Origin: Escherichia coli
GTDB lineage: Bacteria; Pseudomonadota; Gammaproteobacteria; Enterobacterales; Enterobacteriaceae
Strand: one strand, 5' to 3'
Length of the DNA: 64,000 bases
Assembly (NCBI GenBank): GCA_005400705.1
Contig: GCA_005400705.1_4079.1
Part shown: in pieces, positions 4,780 through 11,302 of the stretch
How positions within the stretch are numbered: the stretch's first letter is position 1
Layout of the letters: every line of letters starts with the position of its first letter
Program-made: the position numbers and the translations under genes
Notes under the pieces: generated by a model
The model's database searches: none
Told to the model about the DNA's origin: nothing
What the model saw: only the letters and a program-made list of their open reading frames with translations

Positions 4780-5184
4780 ATGGTAAGTTTACTAGATATT
4801 GACAATACCAGTTTAGTGCTGGTGAAAAAAGGTTTAATTCCCAATTCTACAAAAATTGATTATGCTGTTATTGAAACAAATATGGGAAATATCTGGTATG
4901 ATTCAGAAAGTGATATTGTGATTAGCTGTGTAGACAGTGATCGTTCTGAATGTTGTAGAGTCGGGCATGACGGACAATTTGTTTTTGAATTTCGTTATTG
5001 GAAGGACTCAAAATTTCACCAAGAACTGGTTGCATTGTCAAATGAACTGTATACAGAAGAAACTTTCTTCATGGAAAGTACTATTAATAATGTTGGTTCA
5101 GTAACATATGAGCACTATAAAAAAGTATATGCACTATTCAGAGAAGTTATGAAAATTATCAGAACTGCTGAAGGTAACGAATAA
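4780..5184 (+). CDS. hypothetical protein, EExFFQxS-motif paralog family
   Basis: SD GAGGAA; motif TEETFFMESTINNVGSVT. Confidence 0.6.
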   Translation: MVSLLDIDNTSLVLVKKGLIPNSTKIDYAVIETNMGNIWYDSESDIVISCVDSDRSECCRVGHDGQFVFEFRYWKDSKFHQELVALSNELYTEETFFMESTINNVGSVTYEHYKKVYALFREVMKIIRTAEGNE

Positions 5185-5185
5185 C

Positions 5186-5563
5186 ATGACTACTATATAT
5201 GATATTTTGGGTGTTCTGAGTAAAAATATAGATGATGATTTTGTTATTGTTCAAGATACTAGAAATACATTTCAACTACCATTAGGTTCACCAGATAGGT
5301 TAATTTTTAATAGATACTCAAATGAACTAACTTACATCCATGATGGGATTGCAATTGTATCAGTTTCTATAAACGACTATACAATACGATATGTATATGA
5401 CTTCAACAATTATTGTACAAGAATCCACAGTATTGATATTTCCGAAGAGGAACTATTCCAATTGTCAGTGATTGAGAAAAATGTAATAGGAATTACAGAA
5501 ATTAATATTGTTAAAAAAGCATTAAACTATACGAATATAAGAATTAATGGTGGGTGCAGATGA
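5186..5563 (+). CDS. hypothetical protein, EExFFQxS-motif paralog family
   Basis: Motif SEEELFQLSVIEKNVIGITEI. Confidence 0.55.
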   Translation: MTTIYDILGVLSKNIDDDFVIVQDTRNTFQLPLGSPDRLIFNRYSNELTYIHDGIAIVSVSINDYTIRYVYDFNNYCTRIHSIDISEEELFQLSVIEKNVIGITEINIVKKALNYTNIRINGGCR

Positions 5564-6015
5564 ATGTTGACGAAATAAAAAATCATTTTGAAATTGCAAT
5601 GTCATGTGAATTTGACACACAACGTGTTCATGACCCGAAAGAACATATACGCATTTGTTGTGAATTGTCAGATGATTGTAATATTTTTATTGGAAAAACC
5701 TATGACATGATCGATCTTTCATGTATAGATCCATTGGAAAGAAAAACAAAATATTTATATCTGTACAACACAACATCAGATACGATTGCAATACAACTAA
5801 TATCAACCACAACATCCCAAAGTTATTATAACATAACTGAGGTTAGTAGTTTATCGTTAACCGAAGAAGGATTCTTTCAACAATCGCTTATTCGTGAAAT
5901 TGGTGTTAGTTATGATGAGTTAAATGTATTAGTAGATTGTTTCGAAAAATTGAGTACTTTTGTATTATCCCTTTTTAATATACAGTCGCAAAATCCAATG
6001 GTGGTGAAATGCTAA
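5554..6015 (+). CDS. hypothetical protein, EExFFQxS-motif paralog family
   Basis: Motif TEEGFFQQSLIREIGVSYDEL. Confidence 0.6.
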   Translation: MQMNVDEIKNHFEIAMSCEFDTQRVHDPKEHIRICCELSDDCNIFIGKTYDMIDLSCIDPLERKTKYLYLYNTTSDTIAIQLISTTTSQSYYNITEVSSLSLTEEGFFQQSLIREIGVSYDELNVLVDCFEKLSTFVLSLFNIQSQNPMVVKC

Positions 6016-6449
6016 ATCCAAGTAAATTTCTCCACTTACTTTCGATAACATCAATACCGGATCTTACCAGTGAAACTAATGAATATCGTGAAGCTGGGGT
6101 GGTGTCTATGGAACTCGATACATTTGACCACAAATGCTATGTGACATATGACCCACCGCGTTATGGTAAAGAACATTCTTCTTTTATTTTTGTATTCGTA
6201 TACACTGTATATGATAATACAACACTTGATGATGTTTGTATTGACACTTACGAAATTTGTGATAATATCATAACTGATGACAACAATAACTCATTTGATA
6301 TGTCACTATATAACACAGAAGAATCGTTGTTTCAACTTAGTACTGTTATTGATGCACCATCATTAGAAGATATAAAACAATTTCAAGAACATCTTGACGC
6401 AGTTCGTGAGATGTTCTATAATCATTATCCAGAAGTAGAGTTCAATTAA
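6009..6449 (+). CDS. hypothetical protein, EExFFQxS-motif paralog family
   Basis: Motif TEESLFQLSTVIDAPSLEDI. Confidence 0.6.
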   Translation: MLNPSKFLHLLSITSIPDLTSETNEYREAGVVSMELDTFDHKCYVTYDPPRYGKEHSSFIFVFVYTVYDNTTLDDVCIDTYEICDNIITDDNNNSFDMSLYNTEESLFQLSTVIDAPSLEDIKQFQEHLDAVREMFYNHYPEVEFN

Positions 6450-6463
6450 CTAAAGGTAATAAG

Positions 6464-6724
6464 ATGACTAAAGTAGTTCGTAAACGCCACATGATGAACA
6501 TGGATGAATTTCGTACATTTGACAAATATCGTACTATGTTTCGTATGCTTTCACAGGGCCGTCCAATCGTCATTGTAACAGAGAATTACATGTCACCTGA
6601 GATTATGTTTGGTAATTATGAAAAGGTCTTCATGTTGTACGTGAAGCGTGGATTACTTACAATCAAGACATTAGCTGAAGCAACTGATGAAGATATGGAT
6701 GGTGATAATACCTTTACCATGTGA
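6464..6724 (+). CDS. hypothetical protein
   Basis: 86 aa ORF with SD AAGGTAA. Confidence 0.5.
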   Translation: MTKVVRKRHMMNMDEFRTFDKYRTMFRMLSQGRPIVIVTENYMSPEIMFGNYEKVFMLYVKRGLLTIKTLAEATDEDMDGDNTFTM

Positions 6725-6802
6725 GGAAATATATGTCTGAAAAGCCAAAAGAACCATTAGATCGTGATGATGATTTTTATGACGAACGATATGGAGATGA
6801 TG

Positions 6803-7054
6803 ATGAGTGAACATAGTGCTGTGCTTAAAAAGATTTTAAAGGAACTTGATGGTGAGTTTAATGTCACAGAAGAAGAATATCAGCATTGGAAGAAAGGTTT
6901 TGAACAACTAACCGAGTATGATAAAGTGTTCAATATGATTGGTGTAATTAGCCAGTACTTACTTGGTGGAGGACGTGCAAGTGCTTCAATTCTGGCATCT
7001 GCAATCATCTGTACATCACGATGGTGTGATGAAAAAAGTTTGGAAGATTTCTAA
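6803..7054 (+). CDS. hypothetical protein
   Basis: Track ORF 6764-7054; the ATG at 6803 follows GGAG at a good spacing, exact start uncertain. Confidence 0.4.
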   Translation: MSEHSAVLKKILKELDGEFNVTEEEYQHWKKGFEQLTEYDKVFNMIGVISQYLLGGGRASASILASAIICTSRWCDEKSLEDF

Positions 7055-7069
7055 ATAAGATGCTATAAT
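7040..7069 (+). promoter_or_regulatory. sigma70-like promoter upstream of methyltransferase gene
   Basis: TTGGAA - 18 nt - TATAAT. Confidence 0.4.
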
Positions 7070-7106
7070 ATATCAGAGTACCTTAACAATATAAAAAGGA
7101 TTTTAT

Positions 7107-8987
7107 ATGAAACCTATCCGAGTACTATCTCTTTTTAATGGAATGAGTGTAGGATACATGGCATTAAAAGATGCTGGTATCCCTGTTGAAAAATATTATT
7201 CATCCGAAATTGACAAATTTGCTATAGCTGAATCCCAAGCTAACTTCCCCGATATAATCCAATTGGGTGATGTAACTAGATGGAGAGAATGGGATATTGA
7301 ATGGGATAAGATAGATCTACTGATGGGTGGTTTTCCATGCTTCCCAGCAGGAACTATGATAATGACAAATAAAGGTCATAAAGATATAAAAGATATAAAA
7401 ATTGGTGATATGGTTCTTACACACACTGGACAGTACCAAAAAGTATTGAGTACTGGTGTTAAAAAGGCTCCCACTCGTATTATTACAGGTCAAGGTCACC
7501 TTCCAATTGAGTGTACCGATAATCATCCATTTTGGAGTAGGGAACGTCTAGCCAATAAATGGAATAATCAACGCCGAAGATATGATTCTGTGTTTTCTGA
7601 ACCGCAATGGGTAAATGCTATAGATCTTACTAAACAAAGTTATATTTGTAATGTTAAAAATATTACACATAATACAGTAAGTGATAAAGATGAAAAATAT
7701 TGGTATTTTGTTGGTCGTTTTATGGGTGATGGATGTGCTAGTGTATCTAATAACAAATACAGTATTACTATTGTAGATTCATTAGATAAAGTTGATGAAT
7801 TGAAAAAATGTTTTGATGATTTTGGATACAAATACACATTAGCTATTAAAGATAATCATGTAAGATGTGATATATATAGCAAAAAGCTTTATGATGAATT
7901 AATATGTATTGGGCATAAATCACAAAACAAATGTTTACCACCTGAAATATTCAATGAAACTATCAATAACAAAGAAGCATTTATTAAAGGATACATGGAT
8001 GCAGATGGTTGTGAGGATAAACACAATAAAAAATACAAATTTACCACCACAAGTTATAAAATAGTTCTTGGTATGCAACAGTTAATCTTAGATACTTATC
8101 AACGTCATTGTACTATTAGTCAAACTGTTCCAAAAACAAAAAAATATATAAAAAATAAGTTGGTTAATCAGCTTCCGTATTGGAATGTTCATTTTAGCTA
8201 TAATAAAATTAAAAGAGATGATGTAATATATGATGAAATTTATATATGGAATCGTGGTGTAAAAAGTAATGTACCAACCGGAGAATGGAAAACCGTTTAC
8301 AATATTGAAGTTGCAGTAGATAACACATATACGGCGAACAATATTGTAGTTCATAACTGCCAAGCGTGGTCAGTTGCAGGTAAACAGGGTGGAATAAATG
8401 ATCCTCGTGGTATGTTATTCCATACAATGGTTGATATTTACCAGCACATAAAAAGTCTCAATCCAGACTTGAAAGTACTGTTCGAGAATGTTAAAATGAA
8501 AGAAGATTTCAAGCAATACATTAATAGTGTTCTTGAGATGACACCAGTACTGATAAATTCCCAGCATTATACGCCTCACTTCAGGCAGAGATATTACTGG
8601 TACAGTACTGATAAACTTTTTATACCACCTGCATTATCAAATGCACCTAAACTTCAAGATATTATTGAAGATGGTTGGTACACTGACAGAACCGCTTCGT
8701 ACTGTATAGATGCTAACTATTTTAAGGGTGGTGATTGTAACCAGTACTTTAATAAATCAAGAAGACAAATTGTTTTCAAAGAACCTGATATCGATAGGGA
8801 TTTCCTTATTGAACATGGTAAGCGAAATGTGGACTATCGTCATTTAACAGTACAAGAGTGTTGCATGTTGCAAGGAATTGATGTAAACTACTTCAAAGTT
8901 AGTAGTTCAACACAAGCATACAAAATGCTTGGGAATGGATGGACTATGCCAGTTATATCACACTTACTACGAGATATATTCTTTTGA
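7107..8987 (+). CDS. DNA (cytosine-5)-methyltransferase, intein-containing precursor
   Basis: C5-MTase motif I FNGMSVG, split motif IV GGFP / CQAWSVAG, motif VI ENV (VLFENVKM); a 340 aa insertion lies between them. Confidence 0.8.
   Translation: MKPIRVLSLFNGMSVGYMALKDAGIPVEKYYSSEIDKFAIAESQANFPDIIQLGDVTRWREWDIEWDKIDLLMGGFPCFPAGTMIMTNKGHKDIKDIKIGDMVLTHTGQYQKVLSTGVKKAPTRIITGQGHLPIECTDNHPFWSRERLANKWNNQRRRYDSVFSEPQWVNAIDLTKQSYICNVKNITHNTVSDKDEKYWYFVGRFMGDGCASVSNNKYSITIVDSLDKVDELKKCFDDFGYKYTLAIKDNHVRCDIYSKKLYDELICIGHKSQNKCLPPEIFNETINNKEAFIKGYMDADGCEDKHNKKYKFTTTSYKIVLGMQQLILDTYQRHCTISQTVPKTKKYIKNKLVNQLPYWNVHFSYNKIKRDDVIYDEIYIWNRGVKSNVPTGEWKTVYNIEVAVDNTYTANNIVVHNCQAWSVAGKQGGINDPRGMLFHTMVDIYQHIKSLNPDLKVLFENVKMKEDFKQYINSVLEMTPVLINSQHYTPHFRQRYYWYSTDKLFIPPALSNAPKLQDIIEDGWYTDRTASYCIDANYFKGGDCNQYFNKSRRQIVFKEPDIDRDFLIEHGKRNVDYRHLTVQECCMLQGIDVNYFKVSSSTQAYKMLGNGWTMPVISHLLRDIFF
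7338..8357 (+). other. intein with LAGLIDADG homing-endonuclease domain, inside the methyltransferase gene
   Basis: Begins with Cys (CFPAGT...), ends ...VVHN followed by Cys; two LAGLIDADG-type motifs (YFVGRFMGDGCAS, FIKGYMDADGCED); the +1 residue is the PCQ catalytic Cys. Confidence 0.75.
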
Positions 8988-9469
8988 ACATAAACAAACA
9001 CCAAACTTATATAAAACGTGCAGAAAGTTTCAAACGTCTGGCTGTAAAATCTGAATTAGAATTTAATTTGTATTATCCTAATATTGGTGATGAGGTATTT
9101 TATTGCTCTCATTCAAAGAATGGAACTTTACTTAAATCGGGTAAAGGAACTATTGTTGATATGACCGCAAATTTCAGAGGTAAACTTAATGTAATGTACA
9201 AAGTACAAGATTCAAGTACTGAGTGTATTCATGAAGTGATGCATAACATACCTGCATATCCAAAAGATTTTGTTCAGCTAATATCTCGAAGGGAGAAACC
9301 TATGTTTTATTGTGGTTATGACAAATTAACCAAACAAATTATTCCTAATACTATGGGAAAATTTAAAAGTGATGTGAAATCTGAACTTGAAAAGAAATTT
9401 GGCACGTCATGGGAAACTGAAAACGAGTTTATCGAAATTCGTTTAATTGAAATTACTATACTTGAATAA
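8939..9469 (+). CDS. hypothetical protein (start uncertain)
   Basis: Track ORF overlaps the 3' end of the methyltransferase gene; true start likely further downstream. Confidence 0.35.
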   Translation: MDYASYITLTTRYILLNINKHQTYIKRAESFKRLAVKSELEFNLYYPNIGDEVFYCSHSKNGTLLKSGKGTIVDMTANFRGKLNVMYKVQDSSTECIHEVMHNIPAYPKDFVQLISRREKPMFYCGYDKLTKQIIPNTMGKFKSDVKSELEKKFGTSWETENEFIEIRLIEITILE

Positions 9470-9474
9470 TTACA

Positions 9475-9499
9475 AATCCACGCATTGCGTGGATTTTTC
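9475..9499 (+). terminator. intrinsic terminator
   Basis: ATCCACGCA / TGCGTGGAT hairpin followed by TTTTTCAT. Confidence 0.55.
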
Positions 9500-9511
9500 A
9501 TAGGTGCATAT

Positions 9512-10027
9512 ATGCCAATTCCTTATGTTAAAATTATTAATAATATTCTCGATTCATGGGAAGATGTTATTACTGGTAAAAAGCAACCATCACCAGTACA
9601 TGCTTTATCTGGGAAACTTCAATTCAGAATGTCAAACCAAACTGAAACATTTAATAATCATGATATTTGCATTACATTAAAAACACCTATCAGTATTGTA
9701 ATTAAAAAAAATAAAGATGATGAATTGACATTATCTATTGGTCGTGATAAAATCATTTTAAGTAATTTGTCTGAAGAAGAATTCTTTCAAAGAAGTACTA
9801 TTATCGATATGAAAGATTTCACATATGAATCATTGGTTGAACTCAATACACGTTTTAACGATATTCAGGAACGATTGCGACCAATTCTTCGTATCGAAGA
9901 AGAAGCCTGGATTGAAAGTATTAGGAAGATGCAAGAAATGTTGAAAGAAAATATTAACAATCTGGGTAAAGCTACAATGGAATTTGGTAAAACTTTTAAA
10001 CTGAACTTTTCAAAGGATCGTAAATGA
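9512..10027 (+). CDS. hypothetical protein, EExFFQxS-motif paralog family
   Basis: ATG after the terminator (track ORF starts 9485); motif SEEEFFQRSTIIDM. Confidence 0.55.
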   Translation: MPIPYVKIINNILDSWEDVITGKKQPSPVHALSGKLQFRMSNQTETFNNHDICITLKTPISIVIKKNKDDELTLSIGRDKIILSNLSEEEFFQRSTIIDMKDFTYESLVELNTRFNDIQERLRPILRIEEEAWIESIRKMQEMLKENINNLGKATMEFGKTFKLNFSKDRK

Positions 10028-10479
10028 AAATTGATAATTTGATTCATGTTTTAGGATCTTTACATAAAATATTATCACATCTACATGAGATAAAGAAACT
10101 GGGATTTAACATCTCAAATTCAATTGAAACTACATTTAAATATCAATCAATTACTGGTGATGGTTATTACATAATCGAATATACTTATGAAACCGATCCA
10201 GACTTCTATCCTCTTACGTTGAGAATTTATCCAACAAATCCGAGAGGAATTCACGACATATCATCAATTTCACTTGATCCAGATGGTGAAACGAGTATTG
10301 AATACAATAATGATTCAAAACCAGAATTTTACATTGATGATATTAAAATGATGTTCAACGATGAATATGTGTTCCAGCAAAGTACTGTGCATGATGTTGG
10401 AAGTACTAATGGACAATTTTGGAATACATGTTATTATCATATGATTGAAATTTGTAAATTACTAAAAGGCGATGATTAA
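10024..10479 (+). CDS. hypothetical protein, EExFFQxS-motif paralog family
   Basis: SD AAGGA; motif NDEYVFQQSTVHDVG. Confidence 0.6.
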   Translation: MKIDNLIHVLGSLHKILSHLHEIKKLGFNISNSIETTFKYQSITGDGYYIIEYTYETDPDFYPLTLRIYPTNPRGIHDISSISLDPDGETSIEYNNDSKPEFYIDDIKMMFNDEYVFQQSTVHDVGSTNGQFWNTCYYHMIEICKLLKGDD

Positions 10480-10862
10480 TGAAATACAGCATTGAAGTAC
10501 ATTACACTACAGGGGACACTGAAAATTGTTATGACGTTCTTAATACAATTGATATTCAATGGTCTTCTAAAGAGGAAGCAGTTGCTGCTTTACAGTGCCT
10601 AAAAGAGCATTGGGTGTTTTATATGAAGCAAGATAATTGCTATACTAAAGAACACGAAACTATCGTTGAAAATGCTAAACAAAAAGAGTGGTTTGACCCA
10701 ATATCACCAGAATATTCATTCTTGGTTAAAGTTGGCGATGTGACAGTTCCATTACGAACACCGTGGAACGGCTACTTTGAAACTCTTCATAATGCACGAG
10801 TTGTCGCTGTTGATAATCCTGAGCAAATCGATTTCGATTCATTGGACTGGAAAAAACTATGA
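10479..10862 (+). CDS. hypothetical protein
   Basis: 127 aa ORF, overlapping stop/start with neighbours. Confidence 0.5.
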   Translation: MKYSIEVHYTTGDTENCYDVLNTIDIQWSSKEEAVAALQCLKEHWVFYMKQDNCYTKEHETIVENAKQKEWFDPISPEYSFLVKVGDVTVPLRTPWNGYFETLHNARVVAVDNPEQIDFDSLDWKKL

Positions 10863-11302
10863 CAGTACTGCACCAATTAAAGAAGGTTAAGCATCCAGTT
10901 GTATACGAGGATTGGAAACGACAGAAGTTGATGGGTGATTTTTATTTCCCAAAATCTAAAGTTCTTGCGAATTCAAGATGTACATATTTCAAACATAATG
11001 ATAAAGATACAGTATTTGTTGAAATGGGTTTCAATCCATCAAATACAATGTTCAGTACTAACCAAACATTTTACAAATTTCATATCCAAAAAGATTCATT
11101 TTCTATCATGATTTTAAAACTTTTAGTTGAAGATCTGCTATACCGTGGTGAAAGTGTTCCTTTATCATTAGTGGATATTCCTTATAATAATTTAGAGGAA
11201 ATGTACTTCCAACAGTTGACAGTGCAAGAAAACTTCGGTATGATAGGACTTCAAGAGTTAGAGATGATTAAGCAAATTCGTGATATCTACTTTAAGGAGT
11301 AA
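10859..11302 (+). CDS. hypothetical protein, EExFFQxS-motif paralog family
   Basis: Motif LEEMYFQQLTVQENFG. Confidence 0.55.
   Translation: MTVLHQLKKVKHPVVYEDWKRQKLMGDFYFPKSKVLANSRCTYFKHNDKDTVFVEMGFNPSNTMFSTNQTFYKFHIQKDSFSIMILKLLVEDLLYRGESVPLSLVDIPYNNLEEMYFQQLTVQENFGMIGLQELEMIKQIRDIYFKE

Follow-up and report, generated by a model that had tools for sequence, protein, structure and literature searches.

How can a phage methyltransferase function when the Pro-Cys dipeptide of its catalytic motif is separated by 340 residues? The question is raised by an open reading frame (ORF) in a 64,000-nucleotide stretch of DNA (hereafter the window; contig GCA_005400705.1_4079.1 of Escherichia coli assembly GCA_005400705.1), the source of which is a 121Q/PBECO4-like jumbo coliphage of the genus Asteriusvirus. 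The ORF (7107..8987; stop codon at 8985-8987; plus strand, as are all features of the gene described below) encodes a C5 cytosine methyltransferase with an insert as a 626-residue, 73.0 kDa precursor. The protein is identical to WP_170998953.1, a 'DNA cytosine methyltransferase [Escherichia coli]', and the copy in phage UE-S1 is UTS53451.1 (UE-S1 gp076). None of the public annotations of the 626-residue ORF (WP_170998953.1 and the UE-S1 and ph0011 records) names an intein. We propose that the insert is, very probably, a class-1 intein with a LAGLIDADG homing endonuclease, situated between Pro77 and the catalytic cysteine of the methyltransferase, which would both splice and home.

The split methyltransferase and its insert

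The two halves of the ORF that flank the insert are readily recognized as a methyltransferase. Pfam DNA_methylase (PF00145) matches the whole ORF at 7.9e-29 in three separate stretches; removal of the insert improves the match to 4.6e-35 (122 bits, cutoff 22) and renders its N-terminal part contiguous, and NCBIfam TIGR00675 rises above its cutoff (114.3 versus 100.65 bits) only with the intein removed. The N-extein (7107..7337, residues 1-77) extends from motif I through the GGFP of motif IV (residues 74-77), and its last residue, Pro77, occupies the -1 position. The C-extein (8358..8984, residues 418-626) contains the remainder of motif IV, the ENV of motif VI (residues 460-462; 8484-8492) and motifs VIII, IX and X; in the joined 286-residue flanks motifs I, IV (PCQ), VI, VIII, IX and X all lie in order. 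A first-pass annotation of the window, made from the sequence without database searches, had described just such an enzyme, with motif IV divided into GGFP, 340 residues and CQAWSVAG and with ENV as motif VI, and these assignments hold. Its motif I, FNGMSVG, is indeed present at residues 10-16 (7134-7154), but in a DNMT3-like F-x-G-x-x-x-G form rather than as FxGxG.

The nearest solved relatives of the joined flanks are the catalytic domains of the eukaryotic DNMT3A and DNMT3B (2.5e-24, similar length), followed by M.HhaI and M.HaeIII (~1e-16). The alignment pairs GGFPCQAWS with GGSPCNDLS of DNMT3A, the Pro-Cys catalytic motif, and Cys418 likewise aligns to the Pro-Cys cysteine of M.HhaI. The +1 residue, Cys418 (8358..8360), would therefore act as the splicing nucleophile and, after splicing, as the catalytic cysteine of motif IV, as had been claimed; it is conserved in 18 of 18 family members (residue conservation is counted throughout in an alignment of 19 family sequences, in which some positions are covered by 16 or 18). 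By these alignments the joined flanks are a complete, small, DNMT3-like, orphan C5 DNA methyltransferase with predicted C5 activity, and because a 340-residue domain sits inside the catalytic loop, that activity can soundly be expected to depend on splicing. Some annotation pipelines name orthologues of the 286-residue methyltransferase 'HaeIIIM' or 'DNMT2'.

The insert (7338..8357; ORF residues 78-417; 340 residues, 39.6 kDa) has the anatomy of a Hint splicing domain in which a LAGLIDADG homing endonuclease is nested, as seen in Pfam matches, in an AlphaFold2 model with Foldseek comparisons, and in its absence from phages 121Q and Turkey3. Searched alone, it matches Pfam LAGLIDADG_3 at 6.4e-11 (42.8 bits, cutoff 22.5) over two stretches and Hint_2 at 7.8e-8 (33.3 bits, cutoff 28.4); sub-threshold matches to Hom_end_hint, Hom_end and Hint were given no weight as evidence. 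The block A nucleophile is intein Cys1, which is ORF Cys78 (7338..7340; Cys in 18 of 18), and block B is T-D-N-H (7515..7526), with Thr60 and His63 each conserved in 17 of 18. LAGLIDADG motif 1, YFVGRFMGDGCAS (ORF residues 200-212; 7704..7742), contains the putative catalytic Asp131 (GRFMGD131G, 7728-7730; 17 Asp and one Glu among 18), and motif 2, FIKGYMDADGCED (ORF residues 292-304; 7980..8018), contains the putative catalytic Asp223 (GYMDAD223G, 8004-8006; Asp in 18 of 19). Blocks F and G, VYNIEVAVDNTYTANNIVVHN (8295..8357), end with His339-Asn340 (ORF His416-Asn417); the terminal Asn340 and Lys198 are present in all 19 family members, which have H, F or Y in the penultimate position. The insert thus begins with Cys, ends with His-Asn, is followed by Cys, and has two LAGLIDADG-type blocks with conserved acidic residues, in agreement with the homing-endonuclease intein architecture that the first-pass annotation had drawn; with the profile matches, coincidence is no explanation. 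The intein is more AT-rich than the exteins (GC 29.8% versus 36.2%; third-codon-position GC 18% versus 30%), and a tblastn search with it found no further copies in the window.

An AlphaFold2 model of the intein, built from the 19-sequence family alignment, has a mean pLDDT of 90.3 and a pTM of 0.88, with no segment below 50. Beta-rich N- and C-terminal parts surround two alpha-beta-beta-alpha-beta-beta-alpha units; in order, the model contains helix 119-131, two strands, helix 149-162, two strands and helix 182-191, and then helix 209-223, two strands, helix 240-254, a strand, and so on. Foldseek comparison of the full-length model with the Protein Data Bank (PDB) returns PI-SceI (7e-19), TliVMA (TM 0.73), PhoVMA, PI-PfuI and PI-PkoII, and for the central domain it returns I-DmoI, a LAGLIDADG enzyme that stands free of any intein (E 4e-7, TMt 0.6). 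In a sequence search of solved structures the N-terminal splicing region resembles the gp41-1 intein (3e-4) and the nuclease region PI-SceI. Judged by sequence and predicted fold, we have very high confidence that the insert is a genuine intein, of class 1, and that the homing endonuclease nested in it is of the two-motif LAGLIDADG type. Assignment to the class 3 inteins was rejected, since F:4 is Asn rather than Cys and the canonical Cys1 is present, and so was a bacterial intein-like domain, since the HN↓C junction (arrow, point of insertion or splicing) is canonical and the bacterial intein-like structure 2lwy is matched merely at E 0.023.

Comparison with well-characterized inteins places the insert among familiar elements while showing where it departs from them. 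The best structural matches, PI-SceI of Saccharomyces VMA1, the Tli and Pho VMA inteins, PI-PfuI and PI-PkoII (E 7e-19 to 1e-9, TM up to 0.73), share with it a Hint domain interrupted by a two-motif LAGLIDADG endonuclease and the arrangement Cys1…His-Asn↓Cys+1. They are 360-540 residues in length, compared with 340 for the window intein, share 10-16% sequence identity with it, and reside in V-ATPase, ribonucleotide reductase or polymerase genes whereas the window intein resides in a C5 methyltransferase; unlike them, the latter has Asn for the block F Asp and Pro at -1. The best solved match to the N-terminal splicing region (E 3e-4) is the cyanophage-like, metagenomic gp41-1 intein (PDB 6qaz, 6riz), whose blocks F and G also align with those of the window intein (…IDIEVSGNHLFYANDILTHN). 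The gp41-1 intein is a naturally split mini-intein without an endonuclease, with both the block F Asp and His and with Ser at +1. Among the related Rak2-like jumbo phages, the CBB genome paper (PMC5259590) notes that Rak2 and K64-1 have terminase inteins with Hint and LAGLIDADG_3 domains; their host gene is the large terminase, not a methyltransferase, and the window has no such copy.

Presence, absence and mosaicism among Asteriusvirus genomes

Comparison with near relatives shows the insertion to be precise. A 3-kb query around the gene matched 46 phage records. UE-S1 and ph0011 encode the same 626-residue ORF, and about 40 related records match in two pieces that span exactly 1,981 nt (= 3,001 - 1,020). 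The 121Q orthologue, gp91, is 861 nt long and encodes 286 residues, and the Turkey3 orthologue is also of 286 residues; in the protein alignment with both, the gap is exactly residues 78-417, and the short alleles read straight through GGFP↓CQAWS. The extein-only alignment that the first-pass annotation had put forward as a check bears this out, the 286 residues being colinear residue for residue with the insert-free 121Q and Turkey3 orthologues. The insert-free coding site of 121Q gp91 reads …ATGGGTGGTTTCCCA↓TGCCAAGCCTGGTCAGTT… (also given as …CTTATTAATGGGTGGTTTCCCA↓TGCCAAGCCTGGTCAGTTGCAGG…).

Five other Asteriusvirus phages bear an intein at this same site, and tblastn searches of phage genomes place the copies in two types. 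Type 1 is found in the window, UE-S1 and ph0011, and type 2, about 54% identical to it, in JNE01, TH47 and A4, whose ORFs are intact at 629-632 residues. In a neighbor-joining tree the two types group as sisters with 100% bootstrap support, and all six copies have a single uninterrupted frame and retain every splice residue.

The sequences bordering the intein have a history different from that of the surrounding genome. The window and the insert-free 121Q are 98-100% identical at 5150-7075 and at 9045-11000. Immediately upstream of the intein (7125..7337) identity to 121Q is 0.87-0.89, compared with 0.98-1.00 further out, and this flank is a probable co-conversion tract. Downstream, a haplotype block linked to the intein (8358..8544) is 0.75-0.82 identical to 121Q; identity then returns to 0.97-0.99 at 8545-8744 and falls again to 0.62-0.66 in a second divergent patch in the distal C-extein (8745..8900). 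Over the 203 nt that follow the intein the five insert-bearing phages are 87-100% identical to one another, and no insert-free phage exceeds 84% identity to them (most are at 80%); this stretch divides phages with the insert from those without it in every case. In the protein, the linked haplotype reads GINDPRGMLFHTMVDIY versus GLNDIRGQLFLVMVEIF. The insert-free metagenomic methyltransferase P0091 natively has DPRGMLFHTM, which is consistent with a donor from a lineage other than the 121Q group. The second patch is common to A4 but not to TH47 or JNE01 and is preceded by about 200 nt of 97-99% identity, which points to patchy, discontinuous recombination within one gene. The presumed target, ~20 bp to either side of the junction, codes for motif IV and for that reason hardly varies among all the alleles. 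Together, the local mosaic and the linked flank haplotype form the pattern to be expected if an endonuclease had initiated gene conversion with co-conversion of the flanks.

Nei-Gojobori estimates of the ratio of nonsynonymous to synonymous substitution rates (dN/dS) show that these genes are under purifying selection. The exteins of insert-bearing alleles have dN/dS values of 0.02-0.2, with dS up to more than 1, and the 63 codons directly 3' of the intein are also constrained (window versus A4: dS 0.79, dN 0.044). Within the type-2 alleles dN/dS is 0.07-0.10 in the endonuclease domain and 0.09-0.19 in the N-terminal splicing region. Purifying selection on exteins that carry an intein implies that a working enzyme is made, and thus that splicing probably occurs.

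Occupancy of the Pro-Cys site in other phages and enzymes

An intein at the same position is by no means confined to Asteriusvirus. A search of 5.8 billion proteins with the intein alone gave 31 matches, of which 26 carry both PF00145 and Hint domains with the insertion at the same Pro-Cys site. The junctions shared among the methyltransferase homologues are …(G/S)(S/F/T)P↓CF.(A/G)GT … (V/I)(H/F/Y)N↓C(Q/T)…, and the elements at the site include full-length inteins as well as mini-inteins of 140-167 residues that have no homing endonuclease. A second search, with residues 1-138 (which span the N-terminal junction) against 1.84 billion representatives of 50%-identity clusters, gave 6,260 matches at E <= 1e-3 and 43 at E <= 1e-30. 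Among the best 150 of the 6,260 clusters, at least 129 have a single alignment that runs well into the intein and the other 21 end at residues 78-87; both junctions were present in all 14 of the cluster members sampled. Phages with an intein at the Pro-Cys site include Lactobacillus phage Nyseid, the actinophage Propionibacterium phage B22 (gp50) and EBPR siphovirus 2 (gp44). Mannheimia phage vB_MhS_587AP2 (KP137435.1; 1264-3100 of the compared stretch) also has a same-site intein, in which the frame is broken just after VVHN↓CQS, reflecting either a decaying locus or a sequencing frameshift. In that phage the C-terminal half of the methyltransferase is annotated as a separate, overlapping coding sequence beside an HNH endonuclease gene.

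A similar relationship is seen in the P1 family. A 341-residue intein, with no intein annotation, lies at the Pro-Cys site of the C5 domain of the 1,095-residue Dmt protein of the P1-like phages RCS47 (FO818745.1; 2501-3523 of the compared stretch) and Ro157c2YLVW and of a 'P1' isolate, OP279344. Reference P1 (NC_005856), JL22 and others are insert-free, the RCS47 dmt being matched in two pieces spanning 2,265 nt, and P1-family Dmt thus shows the same presence/absence polymorphism as the Asteriusvirus methyltransferase.

Related inteins also occur in two enzymes of other kinds. The thymidylate synthases of Aeromonas phages PS1 and PS2 contain a related LAGLIDADG intein, 30% identical, with the junction …LTP↓C…THN↓CHFSF; the PS1 gene (MN032614.2, 1201-2211 of the compared stretch) is annotated merely as 'putative thymidylate synthase'. 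The N-extein in PS1 and PS2 ends at the residue aligned to position 145 of E. coli ThyA, and the +1 Cys corresponds to Cys146, the catalytic nucleophile of that enzyme; the insertion lies in the Pro-Cys-His catalytic motif of ThyA. In Lactococcus phage 949 (HM029250.1; 2601-3596 of the compared stretch) a related intein, 28% identical, interrupts the anaerobic ribonucleotide reductase NrdD at RV↓C…KN↓CGYL, presumably in the region of the glycyl-radical motif. The phage 949 NrdD locus also has an ORF labelled 'group I intron protein'. Neighbor-joining places the inteins of ThyA and NrdD within those of the methyltransferases, in a topology whose deep nodes have 46-55% bootstrap support and which rests on a single outgroup and identities of ~28%; this is suggestive only of a host switch between methyltransferase and thymidylate synthase.

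Methylases are already known as hosts of phage inteins. The mycobacteriophage DNMT-1 and DNMT-2 inteins lie in N6/N4 DNA methylases (Kelley 2016, PMC5050341), an actinophage N6/N4 methylase intein has been reported (Gosselin 2023, PMC9957025), and a 2025 survey of actinophages lists 'DNA methylase N-6/N-4 and C-5 (IPR001525)' among intein hosts (bioRxiv 10.1101/2025.01.02.630785). The DNMT-1/2 hosts are PF01555 enzymes with a different junction, as in Tootsieroll (HV↓C…KN↓CPLQ), whose intein is 24% identical to that of the window. In the available portions of this phage-methylase literature we found no discussion of the Pro-Cys catalytic site, of Gram-negative jumbo phages or of Asteriusvirus, nor, in those of the 2025 survey, of the insertion site in the C-5 methylase or of its catalytic cysteine. 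Nor did we find literature that describes an intein in Asteriusvirus, in P1 Dmt or at the Pro-Cys motif of C5 methyltransferases, or natural inteins with Pro at -1, such absence being no proof. The element is therefore an unannotated example of a familiar kind of intein, and its host family has already been noted in survey work; the unusual points of the element are the native Pro(-1) junction and the F:4 Asn.

A broader interpretation can be offered tentatively, as one that we regard as possible but would not favor: that these elements form a large and essentially undescribed intein clade on the Pro-Cys of enzymes that attack pyrimidine C6, natively splicing at Pro(-1)-Cys1 and carrying the F:4 Asn, and hosted by the C5 DNA methyltransferases of numerous phages and bacteria as well as by at least one thymidylate synthase of a phage. 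If this were true, protein engineers would have in the clade a natural source of proline-tolerant inteins, an intein would have moved between two enzyme families by way of a shared catalytic motif, and near-isogenic pairs of insert-bearing and insert-free coliphages would provide a tractable E. coli system for intein homing.

Proposed splicing and homing, and the alternatives

A plausible scenario for the Asteriusvirus gene is as follows. The 73-kDa precursor would be unable to methylate, its catalytic loop being split by 340 residues. Cys78 would attack the Pro77-Cys78 peptide bond in an N-S acyl shift, the N-extein would pass to Cys418 by trans-thioesterification, and cyclization of Asn417 would free the 39.6-kDa intein; an S-N shift would then re-form the Pro-Cys bond and yield a 33.4-kDa methyltransferase with a layout identical to that of 121Q gp91. 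In mixed infections the freed intein, acting as a homing endonuclease, would cut alleles that lack the insert at the conserved sequence encoding GGFP↓CQAWS, and recombinational repair would copy the intein and adjacent flanking sequence into the cut allele. Splicing, endonuclease activity and the target site are the parts of this scenario that we infer. On evolutionary grounds we have high confidence that the precursor would splice to an active methyltransferase, and moderate to high confidence that the endonuclease is currently active, to judge from the traces of gene conversion, the preservation of the catalytic residues and the selection seen on the sister allele.

Several observations weigh against splicing and homing as proposed. 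Two intein profiles fall below threshold: Pfam Intein_splicing scores 25.1 bits where 35.8 are required, and NCBIfam intein_Cterm has an E value of 0.51. Positions 4 and 13 of block F are Asn322 (8301-8303) and Asn329, not the usual Asp and His; 18 of the 19 family members have Asn at F:4, and at F:13 the family has H, N or E. Only ~60% of inteins possess the block F Asp (PMC7765530), so the F:4 Asn is a minority state and no disqualifier. The -1 extein residue is Pro in 15 of 16 family members, and Pro at -1 abolishes or strongly impairs splicing of the characterized natural and engineered inteins tested (PMC6486613, PMC13014065). As to selection, the three type-1 copies are nearly identical and selection on the endonuclease was measured on the type-2 sister allele only; part of the extein divergence behind the dN/dS values may predate invasion by the intein; and the methyltransferase is an orphan and possibly dispensable, so that selection on the exteins might be weak.

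The proline at -1 and the lack of Asp and His in block F would both suit a genuine intein by descent whose splicing has been lost or is poor, carried as a selfish passenger in a dispensable and effectively inactivated methyltransferase and kept only by homing. The methyltransferase is an orphan accessory gene, as this account would have it, and the break just past the C-terminal junction in Mannheimia phage 587AP2 indicates that such loci can decay. Strong purifying selection on the insert-bearing exteins, including the tract that travels with the intein, makes this unlikely, as do the intact frame and splice residues of six out of six Asteriusvirus copies despite ~46% divergence between the types; moreover, Pro(-1) and the F:4 Asn are family-wide over more than 100 diverged clusters, which argues for adaptation and not decay. 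It is alternatively conceivable that the intein is mainly regulatory and that splicing, and hence activation of the methyltransferase, is gated by redox state or the timing of infection. Both junction nucleophiles are conserved cysteines (Cys1 and Cys+1), the latter also the catalytic thiol of the enzyme, and the intein holds ten cysteines; redox- or metal-sensitive conditional splicing is described for other inteins, such as those of DnaB (PMC6195587, PMC7360933). We consider such a role very unlikely here, since no sequence feature points specifically to a switch, most close relatives do without the intein, and a purely selfish element would be expected to show just such a patchy distribution and conversion tracts.

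That the insert is instead an endonuclease domain fused for good, so that methyltransferase and nuclease act together as one polypeptide, is almost certainly incorrect. Fusions of this kind do exist in restriction-modification systems, and public annotation treats the ORF as a single methyltransferase. The insert, however, splits the catalytic Pro-Cys dipeptide, its Hint fold wraps the nuclease domain, and orthologues lack it to the residue. A fused domain without splice residues was what the first-pass annotation had set against its own proposal; comparison with intein profiles and blocks instead finds Cys1, T-D-N-H and His-Asn↓Cys, all the canonical junction residues, in place. The fusion was thus rejected on the fold, the junction residues and the existence of endonuclease-less versions of 140-167 residues at the same site in other methyltransferases.

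The window also has an unusual content of short palindromes. AGTACT occurs 183 times, about once per 350 bp (for example at 199, 334, 374 … 63958), compared with 17.2 ± 4.1 expected from dinucleotide shuffles, with C preferred before it and G after it (CAGTACTG). It is found in all three reading frames, in genes of both strands and in intergenic DNA, so that the signal is one of the DNA itself and no artefact of coding. The first-pass annotation had raised a connection between the methyltransferase and AGTACT; the motif is enriched, but in the window nothing was found that ties it to the enzyme, and the suggestion gains no support. The intein holds one AGTACT compared with ~2.9 expected at window density, which is not a significant difference. 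Conversely, GCGC is absent (~48 expected from base composition), GAGCTC, CCCGGG, GGATCC and CTGCAG have no occurrences, and GGCC and CCGG are present at 0.39x, GATC at 0.52x and CTAG at 0.49x; GTAC is at 2.4x. This avoidance of palindromes looks like restriction-site avoidance. Among the neighbouring genes, the downstream ORF at 8939-9469 overlaps the 3' end of the methyltransferase by 49 nt if started at 8939, and its start varies by annotation, with the long form in ph0011, a start ~130 nt later in UE-S1 and a 4-nt overlap in 121Q gp92. The small ORFs flanking the methyltransferase (4780-6449 and 9485-11302) look paralogous and share a C-terminal motif, (F/L)FQ(Q/L)(S/L)(T/V)(V/I), exemplified by LFQLSTVID, FFQRSTIID, VFQQSTVHD and YFQQLTVQE.

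Inteins typically interrupt nucleic-acid enzymes at the active site, and phage methylases are already among their recorded hosts, so that an intein in this position is not conceptually new. Its recognition corrects the annotation of WP_170998953.1, UE-S1 gp076 and others, which are now labelled as plain 626-residue methyltransferases. As Pro at -1 is a known limit of current intein tools, a family with a native -1 proline is also a practical lead for protein chemists. For the phages, genomes that are 98-100% identical in the flanks and differ by the intein and short conversion tracts constitute a natural experiment, and such pairs make possible a direct measurement of intein homing in E. coli. 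More widely, the catalytic Pro-Cys of C5 methyltransferases emerges as a heavily used intein landing site, occupied in more than 100 diverged protein clusters, at which the catalytic thiol of the enzyme would double as the splicing nucleophile.

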